Assembly: GCA_965213625.1 (NCBI GenBank)
Contig: CBDBZU010000004.1
Coordinates: 1,984,001 to 2,048,000, forward strand
From: a bacterium
Lineage (GTDB): Bacteria > UBA8248
Length of the DNA: 64,000 bases
Reading direction: 5' to 3'
The notes beneath the pieces are model-generated. The model searched no databases, was not told the DNA's origin, and worked only from the letters and a program-made list of their open reading frames with translations. Below, piece by piece: positions 474 to 8,589 of the stretch. The position numbers were made by a program, and so were the translations under genes. Each line of letters starts with the position of its first letter. The first letter of the stretch is position 1.

Positions 474-1403
474 CTACCGCACCGTGAGGATAATCTTCCC
501 GCGCACGTGGCCGGCCTTGCTGATCTCCTGTGCCGCCGCGGCGTCTGCCAGCGGCATCTCCTTTATAGAAGGAGGACGCACCGCGCCCGATGCTGCGAGT
601 TCGACGATTCTCCCCAGATGCGCGCGGTCCCTTCGCACGTTCGGGCGGATGACGCGCACGTCCTCTCTCGGCGGCGTGAACCCGGGCGGCCCCGCCGCGA
701 TGTGCGCGAGCCGTCCGCCCGGCTTGAGGACGGCGAAGCTGCGCGCGTGCACCTCGCCGCCGATGGTGTCGAACACCACGTCACACGGCGGCGCGGCCTC
801 GGTGAAATCCTCTTGCCTGTAGTCGATGGCGTGGTGCGCGCCCAGCTCCTTCACGTATTCGTGGTTTGCCGCGCTCGCCGTCGTGTAAACGGTCGCGTCG
901 ATGTGTCTCGCGTATTGCACCGCGAATCCGCCCACGCCGCCTGCGCCCGCGTGGATCAGGATGGTCTCGCCGGCTCGCAGCTTCGCCTCATCCTCCAGGG
1001 CTCTTAAGGTCGTGAGGCCCGTCATGGCGAGCGCCGAGGCTTCAGCGTGCGAGAGGAAGTCCGGCTTCGGGGCCGCGAGCGCTGCGGGTATGGCGATTGC
1101 CTCCGCGTAGCCGCCCTCGCAGCCTTGCTCGTTGACCGCGAACACGGGGTCGCCGGGCCGGAAATCGGTTACGCCTGCTCCCGTCTCGCGGACGACGCCC
1201 GAGAAATCCCGTCCCAGGATGTGCGGGAACCGCGCCTTCACGTCCCCTTTTCGCAGTCCCTCGCGCACCTTCCAGTCCGCGGGGTTCAGGCTCACCGCGT
1301 GGATATCGACAACGATTTCCCCCGGCGCAGCCTTTGGATCGCGGGTATCCGCGTATTCGAGCACTTCCGGGCCACCATAGCCGCGCATCAGTATGGCTTT
1401 CAC
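474..1403 (-). CDS. NADP-dependent oxidoreductase, MDR/quinone oxidoreductase family
   Basis: SLNPADWK, GRDFSGVV, IHAGAGGVG and GHVRGKIIL motifs. Likely GTG start at 1403 after AGGAG. Confidence 0.9.
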   Translation of the reverse strand: MKAILMRGYGGPEVLEYADTRDPKAAPGEIVVDIHAVSLNPADWKVREGLRKGDVKARFPHILGRDFSGVVRETGAGVTDFRPGDPVFAVNEQGCEGGYAEAIAIPAALAAPKPDFLSHAEASALAMTGLTTLRALEDEAKLRAGETILIHAGAGGVGGFAVQYARHIDATVYTTASAANHEYVKELGAHHAIDYRQEDFTEAAPPCDVVFDTIGGEVHARSFAVLKPGGRLAHIAAGPPGFTPPREDVRVIRPNVRRDRAHLGRIVELAASGAVRPPSIKEMPLADAAAAQEISKAGHVRGKIILTVR

Positions 1404-1438
1404 CGCGTTCTCCTGCCTTTCTGTAGTGATGTTTCCGC

Positions 1439-2014
1439 TCACACGAGGTCTTCAAACGGCCCCGGGTCCGCCTCCAGCCCGAGGTAGTTCGTCCGTATGT
1501 GGTTCCACAGGGCGAGCTTTCCCCAGTCGGCGGTTTCGAGGACGCGGTAGTGCGCGTCGAAAAACGGATTGGGGAGATAGAAGGTCACCATCTGCTCGTC
1601 GCGCCCGTTCAGCAGCGCCAGCGAATAGCTCACCGGCGCATGGCCCGCGACGGGGGGATTCTGATAAATCCGCAGGAGCATCGCTCGCGCGCACCTGCGC
1701 CACTGCGCCAGCTCGGGCGGGCAAGGGTGCTGCGCGTCGCCCAGGTGTTCACCGATGCACAGGTGAAAGTGCCAGTCGCCGAGGTCGACGGTCAGGTAGC
1801 CGTCGAGATAACTGATCCGGCGGGGCGGGGATTTCACCCGGCACTCGAACACGGCTCCCTGGATGCAGGGCCCGAAGGAGAGCGACTCGTAATGGTTTTC
1901 GAACAGGTCGCGCATCAGGGCTTCGAGAAACTCACGCTCCGGGTGGAATTCCCAGACGCACTGCCGACTGCCGTCGGCACCGATTTCCTGTCGATGCAGA
2001 ACATCCACTTTCAT
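1439..2014 (-). CDS. Uncharacterised protein, probable HutX/ChuX/HemS-like fold
   Basis: Motif order GAVFE..GYLTV..HFHL..C.RAMLLR..YSLALLNGRDEQMVTFYL parallels HutX/ChuX (IFE..GYFNL..GHI..C..IAL..ASILFFN..G..MLKIFL). Co-directional with the btu-like operon. Confidence 0.55.
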   Translation of the reverse strand: MKVDVLHRQEIGADGSRQCVWEFHPEREFLEALMRDLFENHYESLSFGPCIQGAVFECRVKSPPRRISYLDGYLTVDLGDWHFHLCIGEHLGDAQHPCPPELAQWRRCARAMLLRIYQNPPVAGHAPVSYSLALLNGRDEQMVTFYLPNPFFDAHYRVLETADWGKLALWNHIRTNYLGLEADPGPFEDLV

Positions 2015-2072
2015 GCCGCTACCCCGTTTATGAATCACGCCGCCCGCCTTGGAGGAACCCGAGCCATTTGGT

Positions 2073-2501
2073 TCAGGGCGAATCGGTCGTATGCAGCAGA
2101 GTATAGCGTATAGTCAGCACGAGTGTCTTACCGAGATGGGGCAGGGGCGCCGCTTTTTGCACCGCCTCCAGTGAGGCGTTATCCAGAAGGGCATTGCCCG
2201 ACGTCTTCTTGATTCTCAATCCCTCGAGCCGCCCGTCCGGCAGGACGCGAAAGCTTACGGTGGCAGCACCCTCGGCACCCGAATCGCGCGCCACTCCCGG
2301 GTAGTGCTGGTGGCGCCTGATGCGGTCGAGTATGGCCTGAAGGCGCGCGTCCGCATCCATCCGCACGCGGCGTTTCCGGAAAGTGAAAGAGGGCGTCTCG
2401 GACGGCGCGGTAACGGACGTCTTTATCTCCTGCGCGAGAAGCGGCGCAGGCGTAGAGAGAATGAAGAGCGCGAGCGCGATGCGGGCGATGGCTGTTCTCA
2501 T
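2073..2501 (-). CDS. Short TonB C-terminal domain protein
   Basis: YPGVARDSGAEGAATVSFRV..DG..IKKTSGNALLDNASLEAVQKAAPLP matches TonB_C; hydrophobic N-terminus. Confidence 0.85.
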   Translation of the reverse strand: MRTAIARIALALFILSTPAPLLAQEIKTSVTAPSETPSFTFRKRRVRMDADARLQAILDRIRRHQHYPGVARDSGAEGAATVSFRVLPDGRLEGLRIKKTSGNALLDNASLEAVQKAAPLPHLGKTLVLTIRYTLLHTTDSP

Positions 2502-3283
2502 TCGTTCTCCTCCGGCGCGCGCATGATGAAATACCGCTCATCATCGCCGCCTATCGTATGAATCTCGGCATTCACCTGAAACGCCTTTTCGATGAGTCCG
2601 GGCGTCAGGACGCCGCTTGCGTCTCCCTGGGCCAGTATTTCTCCCTCATACAGCAGGATCAGATGGTCGCAATAGTGGTGCGCGAGGTTGAGATCATGCG
2701 CGGAGACGACCACGGTCCGGCCCTCTGAAGCCTGCGCCCGCAGGATCGCCAGGATGTCGAGGCAGTGTCTGACGTCCAGGTTCGCAACAGGCTCATCGAG
2801 CAGCAGGACGGGCGTTTGCGCGGCGAGGGTTCGCGCTATCAGCACGCGCTGCAGTTCCCCGCCCGAGAGTTCGTTGATCGCGCGGTCCGCGAGGCCGGCG
2901 GCGTCCACGTCGCGAAGCGCAGTGGTTACCGCCGCGCGGTCCGCCCCGGTCTCGGGCGCGAGTCTGCCCTGGTGGGGGTATCTCCCCATCATCACCGTCT
3001 CATCCACCCGGAAGGGGAACGCCGGCTCCTGTTTCTGGGCGAGATAGCCGACGCGGCGGGCGGTTTCTTTCCGCTCGAACGAATCGATGGGTTCGCCGTC
3101 CAGCGAAATGCGCCCGCTCTTGATGGGCACGAGACCCGCGAGCGCCCGCAGGAGCGTCGTCTTGCCCGCTCCGTTCGGGCCGATGACGCCCGTGAGCGCG
3201 CCCGGCTGAAAGGAAGCCGACACGCCCTTGAGGGCGTCCCGCTCGCCGAGTTCGACGTTTGCGTTCTCCGCTTTTAGCAGCAT
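2498..3283 (-). CDS. Cobalamin/heme-type ABC transporter ATP-binding protein (BtuD/HmuV-like)
   Basis: Walker A GPNGAGKT, LSGGELQR, LLLDEP, HDLNLA. ATG at 3283 overlaps the permease stop; the ORF track over-extends the start. Confidence 0.92.
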   Translation of the reverse strand: MLLKAENANVELGERDALKGVSASFQPGALTGVIGPNGAGKTTLLRALAGLVPIKSGRISLDGEPIDSFERKETARRVGYLAQKQEPAFPFRVDETVMMGRYPHQGRLAPETGADRAAVTTALRDVDAAGLADRAINELSGGELQRVLIARTLAAQTPVLLLDEPVANLDVRHCLDILAILRAQASEGRTVVVSAHDLNLAHHYCDHLILLYEGEILAQGDASGVLTPGLIEKAFQVNAEIHTIGGDDERYFIMRAPEENE

Positions 3284-4317
3284 CAGAAGGTCTCCGCGCG
3301 CGCGCGATTCTTGACGATGAGATACAGGAAAAACGGCCCGCCGATGCTCGCGGACAGTATTCCCAGGCGTATCTCGCCGGCGGGGGAGAGCGTTCGCGCG
3401 AGCAAATCCATCCCCATCACGAAGACGGCGCCCGCCATCATGCTCAAGGGCAGCAGCCTGCGGTGGTCCGGCCCGGTCAGCATCCGCACGATGTGGGGGA
3501 CGAGCAGGCCCACGAAGCCGATAACGCCCGATACGGCGACAGACGCTCCCGCCGCCGCCGCGGCGATGACGAGAATCCACGCCTTCGTCCGCGCCGTGTT
3601 CACGCCGAGCGCCATGGCGGATTCCTCCCCGGACATCATGAGGTTCAGTTCGCGCCCGAAAAAGGCGGCGGCTATACCTGAGGCGGCGAAGAAGGGCGCG
3701 ATGAGGATCACGTGCTCCCAGGTGCGGTTCGTGAGGCTCCCCATGAGCCAGAAGAGAATCTGGCGCGCGATCTCGAAATCGCTCACGCTATAGCTGAGCA
3801 CGAGCGTCGTCATAGCGCCCGCAATGGAGTTCATCGCCATGCCGCAGAGGATGAGCGCGCCCAGCGGCGTGTGTCCCTTGTGCGACGCCACGAGTGAGAC
3901 GAGCAGCACCGTCAGCAGCGCGCCGGCGAACGCGAATGCGGGAACGGCCCAGATCGAGGCGGCCCCTAATCCTAAGGCGATGGCGCTCGTCGCGCCCAGC
4001 GCGCCCCCCGTGCTGACCCCGACGACGACGGGGCTCGCCATCGGGTTCCTGAACAGGCCCTGGAGCATCACGCCCGAGAGTGCGAGCGAGGCGCCGACGA
4101 AAGCGCCCGTGAGCGTGCGGGGAAGCCGGATGTGCCAGACGATGGCGCGCTCATGCTGAGAGACGCCCATCCCCTCGGTAGAGATGAGGCCCAGTTCGCT
4201 CATAATGACCTTGAGAATTTTCCCGGAATCGACCTCCGCCACGCCCAGGCGGACGCTGAGTGCGGCGAGGAGCAGGGCGGCGGCGAAAAGCCCCGCCGTG
4301 AGGGCGTATTTCCTCAC
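3283..4317 (-). CDS. FecCD/BtuC-family ABC permease
   Basis: IRLPR, QGLFRNPMASP, GEESAMALGV and GVIGFVGLLVPH motifs; multiple TM segments. Confidence 0.93.
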   Translation of the reverse strand: MRKYALTAGLFAAALLLAALSVRLGVAEVDSGKILKVIMSELGLISTEGMGVSQHERAIVWHIRLPRTLTGAFVGASLALSGVMLQGLFRNPMASPVVVGVSTGGALGATSAIALGLGAASIWAVPAFAFAGALLTVLLVSLVASHKGHTPLGALILCGMAMNSIAGAMTTLVLSYSVSDFEIARQILFWLMGSLTNRTWEHVILIAPFFAASGIAAAFFGRELNLMMSGEESAMALGVNTARTKAWILVIAAAAAGASVAVSGVIGFVGLLVPHIVRMLTGPDHRRLLPLSMMAGAVFVMGMDLLARTLSPAGEIRLGILSASIGGPFFLYLIVKNRARAETF

Positions 4318-5174
4318 CGGTAGAGCCCTCGCACCAGATCATCGAGTCCATCGACGATGAATTGGGATACGCTCGAAAAACGCGGGTAGGGGATCTCTAA
4401 AATCTTCTTGGTCCGCAGGGGGGCGTAGACCCCGTTCGCGCGGATGACGTCCTTCATGCTCGCGCCCGATTCTGGGTGCATTCCCACCATGATGACGTCG
4501 GGGTTCCAGGCGATGATCCGCTCCGCCGACACCCTCTGTGCGCCCCGAATTCCCTTTTCAGCGGCCACGTTCTCCCCGCCCGCGAGGCGGATGAGCGCAT
4601 CGTGCGAGGTGCCTCCGCCCGTCACCCAGCCGCCCCGCACCAGCGTGAGAATACGCGGAGGCTTGGCGGTTTTCGGGATGCGCGCGCGTATGGCGCGGAT
4701 TCTCTCTCTCGCGTCTTCGATGAGTTGCTGCGCCTTGTCTTCTTCCCCGATCAGGCGGCCCATCTGCTCGATGCTCGTGAAAACGTCCGCAACGCCGCTG
4801 AAGGCGGAGAATTTGGAGACGGGGACTTTGGCGGCGCGCAGGTGGTTCAGGAACGCGGCGCTCGAATAGGAAGCCACGAACACCATGTCCGGCCTTAAGC
4901 TGATGATGCGCTCGGGCGTGCTGTCGATGAGCGGGATGCCCCGCGCTTGCACGGCGACGTTGGAATAGCCCGGATGTCCGGCCAGCTTGTGCAGGCCGAC
5001 GATTCTTTCCCTTGGCGCGAGTGCGAGGAGCATCTCCGCGGTGGCGAGCGTCATGGCGATCAGGCGCTCGGGCTTCCTGGCGGCGCGGGCGGGTGCGGGC
5101 CCCTCCGGAACCGGGGAGACCGCAGCCCATAATAGAGCCGCCGCCAGGAAGCAGGTTTTGAGCCTTCCGCGCAT
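4314..5174 (-). CDS. Periplasmic binding protein, BtuF/helical-backbone family
   Basis: Signal peptide; ERIISLRPDMV and ERIIAWNPDVI motifs; operon context. Confidence 0.88.
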   Translation of the reverse strand: MRGRLKTCFLAAALLWAAVSPVPEGPAPARAARKPERLIAMTLATAEMLLALAPRERIVGLHKLAGHPGYSNVAVQARGIPLIDSTPERIISLRPDMVFVASYSSAAFLNHLRAAKVPVSKFSAFSGVADVFTSIEQMGRLIGEEDKAQQLIEDARERIRAIRARIPKTAKPPRILTLVRGGWVTGGGTSHDALIRLAGGENVAAEKGIRGAQRVSAERIIAWNPDVIMVGMHPESGASMKDVIRANGVYAPLRTKKILEIPYPRFSSVSQFIVDGLDDLVRGLYR

Positions 5175-5216
5175 CGTGTGTCCTTAACGCAAGCCCCTAC
5201 GCTGCGAGGGGTCTCG

Positions 5217-7268
5217 CTAGAAGATAGCCCTTACGCCCGCGAACCACTGGATGCCGGGCGCGCTGAAGCCGTATATGGCGTCGTATTCCTCATCGAGCGC
5301 GTTGTTCACCTTGAGCTCAACCGCGAGTTCCTGAAACGCCGATTTCCTCGTCTTGTCGAATATCGAAATACGGCCCTTTACGACGTCCAGGGAGAACGCC
5401 AGGTCCACCCGCGTGAAGCCTGTGTTCACCACCCTCGGGTAGGGCCAGGGCTGAGAGTCGTCGATGTCCCACCTGTCGCTCACCGTATTCACCCGCAGAC
5501 TCGCCCGCAGGCGATCCGGGTGGTAGCTGATCGAAGCGCTCCACCACCAGTCCGGGCGCCTTAAGAGTTCTTCTCCCTCCACATAGTTCGGCGCGCCGAG
5601 TCCTTCGGTTTCGAGCGCGACCGTATCCATGGTGTTGAAGCTCGCGTGGGCTGTGAAATCGTGGAAATCAAGCAGCGAGAAGGTGAGTTCCGCGCCCTTG
5701 ACCCGCGCCTTCTGGATGTTCTCGTAGTTCGTGCCGTTCTCGAATGGTGAGAACGAATAGGCGATCAGGTCGTCGATCTCGTTGACGTAATAGGTGGCGC
5801 TGAACTTGAGCTTTTTTCCGGCGAAAAACTGATCGAAGCCCGCCTCCCAGCTGTGTTGCCTTTCGCTCTTCAGGTTCGGGTTGCCGGGACCGTAAACGTC
5901 GAGCAGCTCGGCGAAGGAGGGCCGCTTGATTCCCTCGCCCACGGCGCCTCGAATCCGCGCGCCAGTTCCGGGGATTTTATAGGAAGCGGAGAACTTGCCG
6001 GTCGTCTCGTCCTCTCCGACGTCGAAATCATCGGTCCGCACCCCGCCCGCGAGGGTGAGGCCTCCTAGTAACTGGAACTGTTGCTGCGCGTAAAAAGAAG
6101 TCGCACGCCTGTCGCTGTCGTACTTGTTTTCGCCGGAGCCGAAGTCGTTCTCATAGGCGCTCTCGATCGAGATGTCCTCCGTCTCCCATTCGACGCCGAG
6201 CGTGGAGATGGAGCGGCGAAGCGCGCTCAAGCCCAGTTGCTTCCCTGAGAACCTCACGTTGATCTGGTTGTCGAAATGGAGCCTCGTCCCGCTCGTATCC
6301 GTTTTGTCGGAGCCGGGGTTGATCGCGTCCGGCTTGTTCTCGAATAGCGTGTCGCGTAGGTACAAGGAGACGCGCGGGACGTATTCGAGCCACGCGAAGG
6401 GTTTGAGATGCGCGCGCGCGCCGATGAGTTGTTCGGTGTTACGCCCGTATTTGTTGGGTTCGGTGTGGCCTGCATGGTCCGGCCCGGGTATATCGTAGCG
6501 GTTCTGGTTGGCGTGGTAGAGAAAGCGTACCTTCGAGTTGTCTGAGAAGAAATGATCCAGCGCCACCGTCCCCACGGTACGTTGATAGCCGTCGTTCGGC
6601 AGATGCCCCTCCGTATCGAGACGGCTCAGGCTGGCGGCGTATCCGCTCTTGGCCGTTCCACCCTTGAACTTGAACGCCTCCTCGAACGTCTCGTGGCTGC
6701 CGCCCCTGGCGCGCACGGTGAAGATGGGTGTTTCACCCGGTTTGCCGACCTCGGGCAGAAAGTTCATGACACCGGACGCCGCGTCCGATCCGTATAGCGG
6801 GCTTTGCGGACCCTTGAGAATTTCGGCTGCGCCTACCCATTCCGGTGATAAGTGCCCGAAGTCATACGCGCTCCCGTCCGGGAAGGTGAGCTTGAAGCCG
6901 TCGATCATCACGCTGGTGAAGTTGCTCTCGCTCCCCCTCAGGAAAAGGCTCGCCTGCCCGCCCCTGCCACTCGTCTGCGGGAGGATGACGCCCGCCCCCT
7001 CGCTCAGGAAAACGAGCGCGTCGCCGGGCAGAAGGCTCTCGATCCGCTCCGGGCCGAACACTTCCACAGAATCGGCCACGTCGCTCAGACGCTCCGGCGT
7101 TCGTGTGGCCGTAACGGTGATGGGGTCGAGGTAGAGTTCCTCCTCGGCGCTTTGCGCGTGGACAAGCCCCGCCCCGCCCAACAGGATGAGTGCGGCGAGC
7201 CACGCAGCGAACAGGCCCCCTTTGAAGCGGATGGATGATCGGGTGGGTTTTCCTGAAATGCCTTGCAT
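5217..7268 (-). CDS. btuB: TonB-dependent receptor, probable corrinoid transporter (BtuB-like)
   Basis: TonB box DPITVTATR, plug motifs LRGSESNFT and EILKGPQSPLYGSDA, GNPNLKSE, terminal Phe. Lies downstream of cobalamin riboswitches. ATG at 7268 follows AAGGAGG. Confidence 0.85.
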   Translation of the reverse strand: MQGISGKPTRSSIRFKGGLFAAWLAALILLGGAGLVHAQSAEEELYLDPITVTATRTPERLSDVADSVEVFGPERIESLLPGDALVFLSEGAGVILPQTSGRGGQASLFLRGSESNFTSVMIDGFKLTFPDGSAYDFGHLSPEWVGAAEILKGPQSPLYGSDAASGVMNFLPEVGKPGETPIFTVRARGGSHETFEEAFKFKGGTAKSGYAASLSRLDTEGHLPNDGYQRTVGTVALDHFFSDNSKVRFLYHANQNRYDIPGPDHAGHTEPNKYGRNTEQLIGARAHLKPFAWLEYVPRVSLYLRDTLFENKPDAINPGSDKTDTSGTRLHFDNQINVRFSGKQLGLSALRRSISTLGVEWETEDISIESAYENDFGSGENKYDSDRRATSFYAQQQFQLLGGLTLAGGVRTDDFDVGEDETTGKFSASYKIPGTGARIRGAVGEGIKRPSFAELLDVYGPGNPNLKSERQHSWEAGFDQFFAGKKLKFSATYYVNEIDDLIAYSFSPFENGTNYENIQKARVKGAELTFSLLDFHDFTAHASFNTMDTVALETEGLGAPNYVEGEELLRRPDWWWSASISYHPDRLRASLRVNTVSDRWDIDDSQPWPYPRVVNTGFTRVDLAFSLDVVKGRISIFDKTRKSAFQELAVELKVNNALDEEYDAIYGFSAPGIQWFAGVRAIF

Positions 7269-7333
7269 GATTTGACGCCTCCTTGAGCGGCCCAAGCGCT
7301 CGAAACGGACCCCTCGTGGGGTCGCAGGGAGAT

Positions 7334-7477
7334 GCCGGCAGGCCGGTCTTCTGGCTCGCGCCGATGGCCGCCTTTCATTCCTTCCCGGGAAAATCCCAGT
7401 GGTTGCATGAAAGGCGCGTCGCTCACAGCTGCTGGGCAGCTCCGGTCTTACACCGGATTCCCGAACACCTGACGGCA
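7334..7477 (-). ncRNA. Cobalamin riboswitch (proximal)
   Basis: Minus strand reads AGGT..GGGAATCCGGTG.AA.ACCGG..CTG.CC.GCA.CTGTGA..CCACTGGG..CCCGGGAAGG..GAGCCAGAAGACCGGCC (B12 box). P1 pairing GCCGTCAGG/CCTGCCGGC. Confidence 0.9.
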
Positions 7478-7509
7478 GTTTCAGCGGCGGTTTGCTCCGC
7501 CGCTCCTAT

Positions 7510-7725
7510 GGCTGTTGAAAAAGCCTTTGGCAAGGGAGGAACCCCCCAACCCCCCTTGTCAGGGGGGCTTTTTTTCTTGCCCCCCTTGCCGGAAGGCATC
7601 GCTTTTTACCCCCCTGCCAAGGGAGGCTTTTTTTCTTACCCCCCTGCCAAGGGGGGTAGGGGGGGTTGTTTTTCCAGTTGCGAGGGGCGTCCCCTCTACC
7701 CCCAAAAAAGGGGACTTTTCAACAC
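7510..7725. mobile_element. MITE-like palindromic repeat element
   Basis: Terminal inverted TGTTGAAAA (7513-7521) and TTTTCAACA (7716-7724) enclose about four CCCCC(T)TG.CA(A)GGGGGG-type hairpin units separated by T-runs. Confidence 0.6.
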
Positions 7726-7863
7726 AATCCCCGCTTATGGCGAAACTTTATCGCTGCGCGTGCGCAATGCCCGCGTGTGCGATGATTCTCTCGTCTTGGG
7801 GTGTGATGATGCGCAAGATACCACCCACCTCCTGCTCCGCGAGGACGTGACGGGTCATAAGGT

Positions 7864-8027
7864 TGCCGCGGGTCGGTCTCCTGGCTCCCGGATCTCCCTA
7901 CTCACGGCCCCTTCCCGGCGGCATCCGCCAGTGGTTTCGGCCGCTTTCGTCCCCGGTCACAGTGGCGGGTCCGCGCCGGATTCTCACCGGCTTCCCGGGC
8001 TTTCACTCAGAAAGCCCACCTGCGACA
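7864..8027 (-). ncRNA. Cobalamin riboswitch (distal)
   Basis: Minus strand reads AGGTG..GGGAAGCCGGTGAGAATCCGGCGCGGACCCGCCACTGTGA..CCACTGG..CCGGGAAGG..GAGCCAGGAGACCGACC, a canonical AdoCbl riboswitch. Confidence 0.93.
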
Positions 8028-8085
8028 GGTCGGAAAAACGATGCTGCTCGAACAATCAGCGTGCTACATACGAATCGGGGCGGTA

Positions 8086-8589
8086 TTACACCGCCTCGTA
8101 CTTGTCGCGCGTGATGGTGTCCAGATCGATGCCTTCGATGCGCACGAGGCGCGTCTCTCCCTCGCGCTTGGGCGAGTGGAATTCGCCTACGTCGTAGGCC
8201 TTGGACAAGCCCGGCGTGAGGTCGTAGCTGCGCACGGCGCGCACCTTGCCCGGCGCTGCGCCGTTGGGCCGTTCGACGAGATCATAGTCCGTCATCGTGG
8301 TGGTGCCCACCGCCTGGCCGTAGATGGCCCACGACTGGCCGTGGTCGTGCGGGGAGCTTCCGGTCACGCCCTTGTGTACATGTGCGAAGATGCAAAAGCC
8401 GAGCTCGGGGTCCTTGTAAAGGATCTTGCGGGGGGAGTCGTTGTCCGGCCCCAGGTGTTCCTGCACGAACTCCTCTTGCACCAGGACTTTCTCCAGGGCG
8501 TCGCTCACCTTCTGGAGGCCCGCCTTGCTCGAATCGGCTTTCAGGATGTCGTGACATTCGGCTGCGAATTTATCGAGGATTTCACCCAT
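8086..8589 (-). CDS. Cupin / cysteine dioxygenase-like protein
   Basis: PHDHGQSWAIYGQ and distal FHS metal-binding motif; GGAG RBS. Confidence 0.75.
   Translation of the reverse strand: MGEILDKFAAECHDILKADSSKAGLQKVSDALEKVLVQEEFVQEHLGPDNDSPRKILYKDPELGFCIFAHVHKGVTGSSPHDHGQSWAIYGQAVGTTTMTDYDLVERPNGAAPGKVRAVRSYDLTPGLSKAYDVGEFHSPKREGETRLVRIEGIDLDTITRDKYEAV

Follow-up and report, generated by a model that had tools for sequence, protein, structure and literature searches.

According to PMC12670364, HutX is the cytoplasmic heme carrier of a heme-uptake operon and delivers heme to HutZ and HutW. Here we describe a 191-aa protein of the family DUF7676, encoded in a cobalamin-riboswitch operon within a 64,000-nucleotide (nt) stretch of bacterial DNA (assembly GCA_965213625.1, contig CBDBZU010000004.1), hereafter called the window. 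The model of this protein shares the fold of HutX from Vibrio cholerae (5exv) and ChuX from E. coli O157:H7 (2ovi, 6u9j; PF06228), with Z 10.0–11.2 over 130–133 residues and a root-mean-square deviation (rmsd) of 3.0–3.4. Like both carriers, it is a small, single-domain protein encoded in a metallo-tetrapyrrole uptake operon, and it is read as cytoplasmic since neither an N-terminal hydrophobic segment nor a signal peptide is present. Unlike them, it is ~30 residues longer, possesses an invariant H-x-H-x-C...H cluster, and stands under cobalamin riboswitches, not iron or heme control, with B12 genes and not heme-degrading enzymes as its partners.

Judged by sequence context and structure prediction, DUF7676 proteins probably bind or act on corrinoids in some way. 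That the protein of the window is a cytoplasmic corrinoid-handling protein, either a binding escort or a processing protein, has about an even chance. A corrinoid-processing role was the central idea of an earlier first-pass annotation made from the letters of the window, and it survives the present analysis, which strengthens it with riboswitch control seen in several phyla, with QueG and BluB fusions, and with conserved residues that fall in the interface of a predicted dimer.

A second described counterpart is the riboswitch-controlled alr4027-btuB2-alr4030-btuFCD operon of Anabaena sp. PCC 7120. According to PMC10878165, it takes up cyanocobalamin, is induced by cobalt starvation and repressed by cobalamin, and its alr4030 gene is uncharacterised. 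The layout given there is that of the alphaproteobacterial and Nitrospira-type DUF7676 loci described below (riboswitch, receptor, small uncharacterised gene, btuF, btuC, btuD), a comparison that places alr4030 by position only. A literature search found no paper naming DUF7676, and nothing linking a cobalamin riboswitch with HutX, or a ChuX-fold protein with corrinoids, cobalamin or B12. PMC3597751 names ChuX/HutX in an unrelated context only.

Fold, conserved site and predicted dimer of DUF7676

The 191-aa protein matched PF24724 above the gathering cut-off over the full domain (profile positions 7–166 of 166), and a whole-genome search showed DUF7676 to be single-copy in the genome (185.7 bits). 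No other Pfam match was obtained for the protein at E ≤ 0.1, neither ChuX_HutX (PF06228) nor HemS (PF05171). In a protein collection clustered at 90%, 730 of the 790 candidates of near-equal length matched DUF7676 at E ≤ 0.001. When 1.84 billion proteins are clustered at 50% identity, the family accounts for 422 representatives, and at least 510 of the 577 pattern matches listed in species-representative genomes encode a DUF7676 relative.

The AlphaFold2 model, obtained with a 34-sequence alignment as input, had a pLDDT of 92.3 and a pTM of 0.88. Ranks 1–26 of the Foldseek search against the PDB were all occupied by HutX, ChuX, HemS, PhuS, ChuS or structural-genomics relatives (probability 1.00, TM 0.45–0.58). 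VIA-align gave Z 11.2 for ChuX 6u9j (133 residues aligned, rmsd 3.0) and Z 10.3 for HutX 5exv, with the first unrelated entry at Z 4.0. A scan of 48,161 PDB representatives that was independent of Foldseek yielded Z ≥ 5 only for 3na2, 5exv, 2ph0, 3fm2 and 4cdp, all of the heme-carrier fold. The first-pass annotation had suspected a HutX/ChuX/HemS-like fold and had named AlphaFold modelling and Foldseek of 1439–2014 as the check; model, Foldseek, VIA-align and whole-PDB scan bore this out, returning the heme-carrier fold and not an unrelated one. As modelled, DUF7676 has the HutX/ChuX/HemS fold. A protein-language-model search placed ChuX/HutX (PF06228) and LFE_1968-like proteins (PF22684) nearest among the clusters other than DUF7676, at a score of 0.89 that lies below the tool's 0.9 line and serves as a lead only.

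Four further structures match the fold as well as HutX and ChuX do (Z 9.4–11.1), namely 3na2 from Leptospirillum (PF22684, LFE_1968-like; Z 10.9), 3fm2 (Ava_4353 of Anabaena variabilis; Z 9.4), 2hqv (Z 11.1) and 2ph0. Their functions are putative at most, and none of them was recovered by sequence or profile searches with DUF7676. HemS, PhuS and ChuS (2j0r, 4mf9, 4cdp) align with DUF7676 through their C-terminal domains (Z 6.6–6.8, ~127 residues); DUF7676, in contrast, is a single domain and has no heme context. The heme-ligating His of HemS, PhuS and ChuS presumably lies just before the aligned region, and the corresponding N-terminal position of DUF7676 is not conserved.

Conservation is concentrated in polar residues. 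Q52, G53, E57, D71, Y73, T75, H82, H84, C86, R106 and N136 are invariant in the 34-sequence alignment, and H90, R110, R115, E140 and Q141 are at least 90% conserved. The motif WHFHLCIGEH corresponds to residues 81–90, and in the model H82, H84 and C86 alternate along one beta-strand, facing the same side. The extra His and Cys residues first noticed in WHFHLCIGEH, CPPE and RRC thus fared differently: those of WHFHLCIGEH are invariant or nearly so, whereas CPPE and RRC are present but their cysteines (C96 and C107) are unconserved.

Prediction of two copies gave a score of 0.64, compared to 0.43 for the best of three controls. The mark set for a dimer was attained by 20 of 30 proteins whose solved structures are pairs of one chain, and by 1 of 23 whose solved structures are single chains. 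Contact agreement between the dimer runs was at least 92%, with a partner pLDDT of at least 86. The predicted interface comprises residues 48–61, 73, 80–86, 90, 105–108, 134–143 and a few others, essentially the invariant residues; loop 52–55 of one copy contacts H84, C86, R106 and N136 of the other. Most members outside the clade of the window carry a C-terminal tail containing His or Cys (HG, HP, HA, CG). The window clade has no such tail and contains an insertion, NPPVAGHAP (residues 118–126), which adds to the predicted interface.

ChuX itself is said to have been described as a dimer by Suits et al. in 2009. A ChuX-type homodimer is predicted for DUF7676, although the score may owe its height to resemblance with ChuX dimers already solved. 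Provided that the prediction holds, a dimer would have a pair of composite polar sites, strongly conserved, on its concave sheet faces, where, by analogy, solved relatives bind tetrapyrrole. Such a dimer would also mimic the two-domain arrangement of HemS, PhuS and ChuS.

Association of DUF7676 with B12 genes across phyla

The neighbourhood survey covered the best 80 of at least 510 loci, 17 of them close relatives (62–92% identity; labelled records titled Nitrospinota or Nitrospinaceae) and 63 distant (44–56% identity). The distant loci, with clustered open reading frames (ORFs) and all scanned with Rfam, were titled Pseudomonadota, Chloroflexota, Nitrospirota, Planctomycetota, Acidobacteriota, Methylomirabilota/Rokubacteria and others. 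A cobalamin riboswitch lay upstream on the same strand in 23 of the 63 distant loci, with titles from Pseudomonadota, Chloroflexota, Nitrospirota, Planctomycetota and Acidobacteriota; a further locus, L046, has one just downstream. Since genomes carry few cobalamin riboswitches, this rate should be far above that of chance proximity, as a reasoned argument. Btu-type transporter genes were present on the same strand within 6 kb in 32/63 distant loci, in at least three gene orders. A riboswitch accompanied 22 of these 32, and seven of the ten loci without it have less than 5 kb of upstream sequence. The tie of homologues to B12 riboswitches and btu genes that the first-pass annotation had proposed to look for was thus found in several phyla.

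In Alphaproteobacteria, Nitrospira and a Pirellulales record, the genes follow the order riboswitch, receptor, DUF7676, substrate-binding protein (SBP), permease and ATPase, optionally continued by TonB and CbiZ. The order in Chloroflexota is riboswitch, SBP, a 129-aa unknown, permease, ATPase and DUF7676, and in L029, L030 and L035 the riboswitch is followed first by DUF7676. According to Pfam matches of cluster representatives, CbiB, PduO-type adenosyltransferase and CbiZ clusters adjoin DUF7676 in 10 of the 63 distant loci. DUF7676 stands beside CbiB and PduO-type adenosyltransferase in Competibacteraceae-type loci, and CbiZ occurs in four loci with alphaproteobacterial or Acidobacteriota labels. 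Altogether, 36/63 distant loci have any B12 feature. In a quick maximum-likelihood tree with a midpoint root only, riboswitch-linked rows occupied deep branches and most major clades; the two labelled groups without B12 context, an 11-row clade and a clade of nitrile-hydratase-accessory fusions, each formed a separate starred clade.

Among the close relatives, receptor, SBP, permease, ATPase, TonB_C and DUF7676 genes are contiguous in 12 of the 17 loci; the remaining ones comprise one truncated contig and four loci with DUF7676 at 1–6 kb from the transporter. The cluster of the TonB_C protein is present in the window and in 17/17 close loci.

Gene fusions point in the same direction. A search for longer DUF7676 homologues returned seven proteins. 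QueG, a cobalamin-dependent enzyme, is fused to DUF7676 in P0121 and P0122 (TIGR00276, 447 and 425 bits; cut-off 200); three members, each 559 aa long, come from separate contigs. BluB, which makes the lower ligand of B12 as a 5,6-dimethylbenzimidazole (DMB) synthase, is fused to it in P0125 (TIGR02476, 266 bits; cut-off 150), and at least four proteins of 401–460 aa in the cluster carry this fusion. The BluB cluster of 398 members mixes fused forms with split BluB-only and DUF7676-only ones, so the two genes are at least adjacent and sometimes fused. A fusion to an FhuF-like 2Fe-2S reductase (P0124) is represented by one sequence, whose FhuF scores stay below threshold. Every fused form retains H82, H84, C86, H90, R106, N136, E140 and Q141. 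Three candidates were left uncounted, P0123, P0126 (DUF2214) and P0127 (FecCD permease), which show garbled Arg-rich linkers or tails on single contigs and may be gene-calling artefacts in high-GC DNA.

Several side observations were made in the distant loci. The 129-aa protein, without a Pfam match, recurs in Chloroflexota-type B12-riboswitch operons (e.g., L045:834-1223), either between SBP and permease or just before DUF7676 (L042, L044, L045, L051, L054, L056, L067, L071 and L077), and is a second uncharacterised small component of such operons. Back-to-back pairs of cobalamin riboswitches, one on either strand, were seen at L030:3776-4264 and L035:41-540; they head divergent operons, one of which begins with DUF7676. 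L018 is titled as an archaeon (Candidatus Nitrosocosmicus), and its DUF7676 gene and neighbourhood are nearly identical to those of the Rokubacteria-titled L019 and L021, which suggests mis-binning. In the riboswitch-free proteobacterial locus L079 (3651-5639), the alpha subunit of propionyl-CoA carboxylase, an enzyme of the pathway feeding B12-dependent methylmalonyl-CoA mutase, follows DUF7676; the arrangement was seen once and may be due to chance.

The operon of the window, its leader region and the host genome

The operon runs on the minus strand from two riboswitches through the transporter genes to DUF7676 and an oxidoreductase gene. Every element of the run claimed in the first-pass annotation is present, with coordinates exact or off by a few bases.

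Table. Features of the cobalamin-riboswitch operon, in 5' to 3' order on the minus strand (coordinates of the window)
Feature	Position	Strand	Evidence
Distal cobalamin riboswitch	7854-8038	minus	RF00174, 115.1 bits vs gathering 31.5, E 7.3e-29, model 1-189
Inter-riboswitch spacer	7488-7853	minus	four ~30-nt G/C-rich palindromic repeats; possible 27-codon ORF after GGAGCAGGAGG
Proximal cobalamin riboswitch, immediately 5' of receptor gene	7324-7487	minus	RF00174, 89.4 bits, E 1.7e-21, model 1-189
TonB-dependent outer-membrane receptor, BtuB-like	5217-7295	minus	Pfam Plug and TonB_dep_Rec_b-barrel; best NCBIfam TIGR01779 TonB-B12
Periplasmic substrate-binding protein (SBP), BtuF-like class	4314-5174	minus	Pfam Peripla_BP_2, E 5e-26; BtuF model NF002894
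FecCD-family ABC permease, BtuC-like	3283-4317	minus	Pfam FecCD, E 4e-90; best NCBIfam NF007081 BtuC
ABC transporter ATPase, BtuD-like	2498-3283	minus	Pfam ABC_tran, E 8e-32; best NCBIfam NF007082 corrinoid ABC transporter ATPase
Short TonB C-terminal-domain protein, 142 aa, hydrophobic N-terminus	2073-2501	minus	Pfam TonB_C, E 1.8e-13; TIGR01352 54.8 bits, above cut-off 27.1
DUF7676 protein, 191 aa	1439-2014	minus	PF24724, 185.9 bits vs cut-off 27
MDR-superfamily (quinone-oxidoreductase-like) NAD(P)H oxidoreductase	474-1403	minus	Pfam ADH_N, ADH_zinc_N, ADH_zinc_N_2

As read from the sequence, SBP and permease genes and ATPase and TonB_C genes overlap by 4 nt each, and permease and ATPase genes by 1 nt. 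The gap between TonB_C and the 191-aa ORF is 58 nt, and that between the 191-aa ORF and the oxidoreductase gene is 35 nt, as first noted. A promoter and terminator scan found no minus-strand terminator-like site between the genes from 7295 to 474. A weak promoter-like site (9 of 12 positions; 2129-2100, minus) ahead of the DUF7676 gene was not relied on.

Both aptamers are complete and score well above the gathering threshold. Cobalamin riboswitch matches in the genome of the window number two, both heading this operon, with 150 of 315 first-look candidates scored. The tandem pair is kept in L001–L005, L007–L011, L016 and L017 (Rfam on L001, L007, L010 and L011; blastn), and L014 has the proximal riboswitch only. 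No riboswitch was found within the flanks of L006 (contig truncated), L012, L013 and L015. Two Nitrospira-type loci, L069 and L080, also have a tandem pair. The spacer between the aptamers is ~138–440 nt long among relatives; that of the window holds the repeat families D1–D3 and inverted repeats I1–I5.

In the window, the palindromic units of the spacer lie at 7528-7667 (ACCCCCCT..GGGGGG followed by a T-run, plus strand) and are REP-like in look. They score as plus-strand terminators, and there is no plus-strand gene ahead of them. The possible 27-codon ORF (7753-7836, minus) has a GTG start after GGAGCAGGAGG and lies immediately 3' of the distal riboswitch; judging from this position, it could be an element controlled by that riboswitch. 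A 167-aa ORF with a His-rich stretch (HVHKG...SPHDHG; 8086-8589, minus) ends 48 nt upstream of the distal riboswitch. It has no match in Pfam or NCBIfam and occurs at the same position in the window and 11/17 close loci.

The oxidoreductase at the end of the run had been suggested as a possible reductant for the DUF7676 protein. It contains the superfamily domains ADH_N and ADH_zinc_N and scored 184 bits with the PIG3-type model TIGR02824, against a cut-off of 296.8. Its gene directly follows DUF7676 in the window, L001, L003, L004, L005 and L012 and lies ~2 kb away in L002. The window and 6/17 close relatives thus have it as a same-strand downstream gene, and 0/63 distant loci have it within 6 kb on the strand of DUF7676. 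We therefore rejected this enzyme as a conserved redox partner: it is an adjacent, clade-specific gene, probably outside the conserved system.

The assembly is 96.6% complete with 5.2% contamination. The genome encodes a PduO-type adenosyltransferase and CobS, and has five matches of B12-binding domains, four of which pass the cut-off and one of which lies in a 1264-aa frame. A profile search of this 96.6% complete genome gave no CbiB or CbiC match. Because such matches are lacking and B12-using proteins are present, the organism most likely cannot make the corrin ring and depends on imported corrinoids. Given this dependence, a cobalt-insertion chaperone would have no obvious use in B12 synthesis.

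Candidate functions of DUF7676 proteins

In the mechanism outlined here, ligand identity, the dimer, the role of Cys and His, and the hand-over are what we infer. The DUF7676 protein would be made together with a TonB-dependent, BtuBFCD-type corrinoid importer at low intracellular B12, under the control of the tandem riboswitches. It would form a ChuX-like homodimer whose concave beta-sheet faces carry the invariant polar cluster, with H82, H84 and C86 on one strand together with H90, R106, N136, E140 and Q141, closed by the Q52–E57 loop of the partner. Incoming corrinoid would be taken at the cytoplasmic side, its cobalt probably ligated through Cys or His, and would be handed to adenosyltransferase, QueG-type enzymes, CbiZ/CbiB and CobS-type salvage, as HutX and ChuX do for heme. 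That the protein is mainly a carrier or escort, and not an enzyme, has a chance close to even or slightly below. Of the original proposal, the heme-carrier fold repurposed for a cytosolic corrinoid chaperone or processing protein is the best reading of the fold, the riboswitches, the btu genes and the QueG and BluB fusions; its reductant part is not supported.

Human CblC/MMACHC and CblD/MMADHC and bacterial BtuM are escorts or processors of B12, with thiolate–cobalt chemistry in BtuM and CblD. By analogy, the job proposed for DUF7676, i.e., to receive, ligate or process, and pass on cobalamin, would be alike; however, these proteins have unrelated folds and are absent from the DUF7676 fold matches.

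A number of observations weigh against a corrinoid-handling role, or against the likeness to heme carriers on which it leans. Sequence homology to ChuX/HutX/HemS is undetectable. The 34-sequence DUF7676 alignment reached a probability of 1.3% in hhalign against 18 ChuX_HutX domains, which were taken from alphaproteobacterial HemS-type genes; phmmer against the PDB returned nothing below E 0.1 with the 191-aa protein, and nothing meaningful was obtained with the 34-sequence profile. With this hhalign result and DUF7676 as the only Pfam family, the earlier statement that the motif order tracks HutX/ChuX/HemS fails at the sequence level, and the fold by itself does not fix the ligand. All transporter proteins of the window fall short of the Btu equivalog cut-offs of NCBIfam (receptor, TIGR01779 TonB-B12, 173 of 599.7 bits; SBP, BtuF NF002894, 40.5 of 234; permease, BtuC NF007081, 279 of 461; ATPase, corrinoid ATPase NF007082, 265.6 of 537), so their naming as Btu-like rests on family-level Pfam matches and the cobalamin riboswitches. 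Among the distant loci, 28 have flanks of 5 kb or more in both directions, and just 14 of these have a B12 feature, i.e., about half of the full-flank loci are without B12 context. The starred 11-row clade with Rokubacteria or Methylomirabilota labels is riboswitch-free, its neighbours being a metallo-beta-lactamase-fold gene, DUF2214, an SBP_bac_1/BPD_transp ABC system of sugar/polyamine type and an amidase. A proteobacterial group likewise has unrelated neighbours (aminotransferase, glutamine synthetase, propionyl-CoA carboxylase). NHase_beta_N, the nitrile-hydratase accessory domain, is N-terminal to DUF7676 in 7 of the 120 listed homologues of near-equal length; on the one contig with flanks, the neighbours of this fusion are genes for an FAD oxidase and a TPP enzyme and one resembling dimethylformamidase. 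Finally, the H-x-H-x-C...H cluster with a C-terminal His would also suit a metal-ion site.

The main rival, though an improbable one, is a metallochaperone or small metalloenzyme that would bind metal as the free ion (cobalt, or else zinc, iron or nickel) at H-x-H-x-C...H and whose B12 link would reflect cobalt economy. In Co-type nitrile hydratases, the NHase_beta_N domain acts in cobalt insertion, and the robust NHase_beta_N fusion clade keeps the cobalt-ion reading alive. The alternation of H82, H84 and C86 on a beta-strand with H90 nearby, the His- or Cys-containing C-terminal tails of most members outside the window clade, the loci without B12 context and one Chloroflexaceae locus with a heavy-metal P-type ATPase directly upstream also fit a metal ion, as does the response of the comparable Anabaena B12 operon to cobalt supply (PMC10878165). 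However, the genome of the window, lacking a CbiC or CbiB match, shows no evident use of cobalt in corrin synthesis; the QueG and BluB fusions, like the neighbouring adenosyltransferase, CbiZ and CbiB, have to do with the finished corrinoid or its lower ligand and not with free cobalt; and the whole-PDB matches at Z ≥ 5 all have the heme-carrier fold. Another small molecule related to B12 could be the cargo, for instance the lower ligand (as 5,6-dimethylbenzimidazole or alpha-ribazole) or a flavin, bound for cobamide assembly or remodelling. We hold this for clearly less probable again: BluB fusion or adjacency recurs in one lineage (the 398-member cluster), the remodelling enzyme CbiZ occurs in four alphaproteobacterial or Acidobacteriota-labelled operons and CobS is encoded in the genome of the window, but the QueG fusion and the adjacency to importers in many phyla suit a complete corrinoid better, and the cleft of the fold accommodates tetrapyrrole in solved relatives.

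Within a corrinoid role, thiolate–cobalt ligation underlies decyanation by BtuM, and this chemistry would also allow DUF7676 to be a processing enzyme, either for upper-ligand removal or exchange, as a bacterial counterpart of human CblC/MMACHC that decyanates, dealkylates or reduces, or as a corrinoid degrader resembling ChuS/HemS, its active site being the His/His/Cys cluster. The number of invariant polar residues (Q52, E57, D71, Y73, T75, H82, H84, C86, R106, N136) is unusually high for a carrier, and they form one composite site in the predicted dimer. Redox fusions are in line with an enzyme, namely those with the nitroreductase-fold BluB and with the FhuF-like 2Fe-2S reductase (a single sequence with weak scores), and the fold family holds heme degraders (ChuS, PhuS) as well as carriers (HutX, ChuX), according to PMC12670364. 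No cofactor-binding motif or reductant partner is conserved, however, the adjacent MDR enzyme being clade-specific, and degradation of B12 under a riboswitch turned on at B12 scarcity would make little physiological sense; on balance, an enzyme is unlikely, if less so than a metal-ion protein. The fold alone would fit an ordinary heme carrier behind a heme transporter, given that FecCD-type transporters also import heme and that both the ATPase and the receptor obtain scores with heme models. Against this stand the two strong cobalamin riboswitches heading the operon, with the same control in 23/63 distant loci, the B12 genes found as neighbours and fusion partners, and the lack of a Pfam ChuX_HutX or HemS match and of profile similarity. 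The genetic setting is one of cobalamin riboswitches and B12 genes, and not of iron- or heme-controlled genes for the uptake or breakdown of heme, Fur boxes not having been searched for; a heme carrier is very unlikely.

The boldest version of the corrinoid-handling proposal, and a doubtful one, would make DUF7676 the missing cytoplasmic B12 receiving and processing protein of many bacteria. A heme-carrier fold would have been remodelled into a homodimer with a His/His/Cys site for cobalt ligation; this site would strip or exchange the upper ligand of imported corrinoids in a CblC-like manner and load them onto QueG and adenosyltransferase, and in other clades it would bring cobalt to nitrile-hydratase-type enzymes.

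Eukaryotes have the dedicated B12 escorts CblC and CblD. To our knowledge, little has been described of B12 handling between the inner-membrane importer and the user enzymes in bacteria, and no escort for most of them. DUF7676 is a concrete candidate, a compact conserved family whose regulation, gene neighbours and fusions link it to B12 in several phyla. It is also testable, being small and soluble, with a confident model and three or four obvious residues to mutate. If the corrinoid-handling role is true, the heme-carrier fold would have been reused for the other great metallo-tetrapyrrole, and the annotation of B12 uptake operons would become sharper in groups of environmental importance, namely the nitrite oxidisers of Nitrospinota/Nitrospirota, Chloroflexota and Competibacteraceae.

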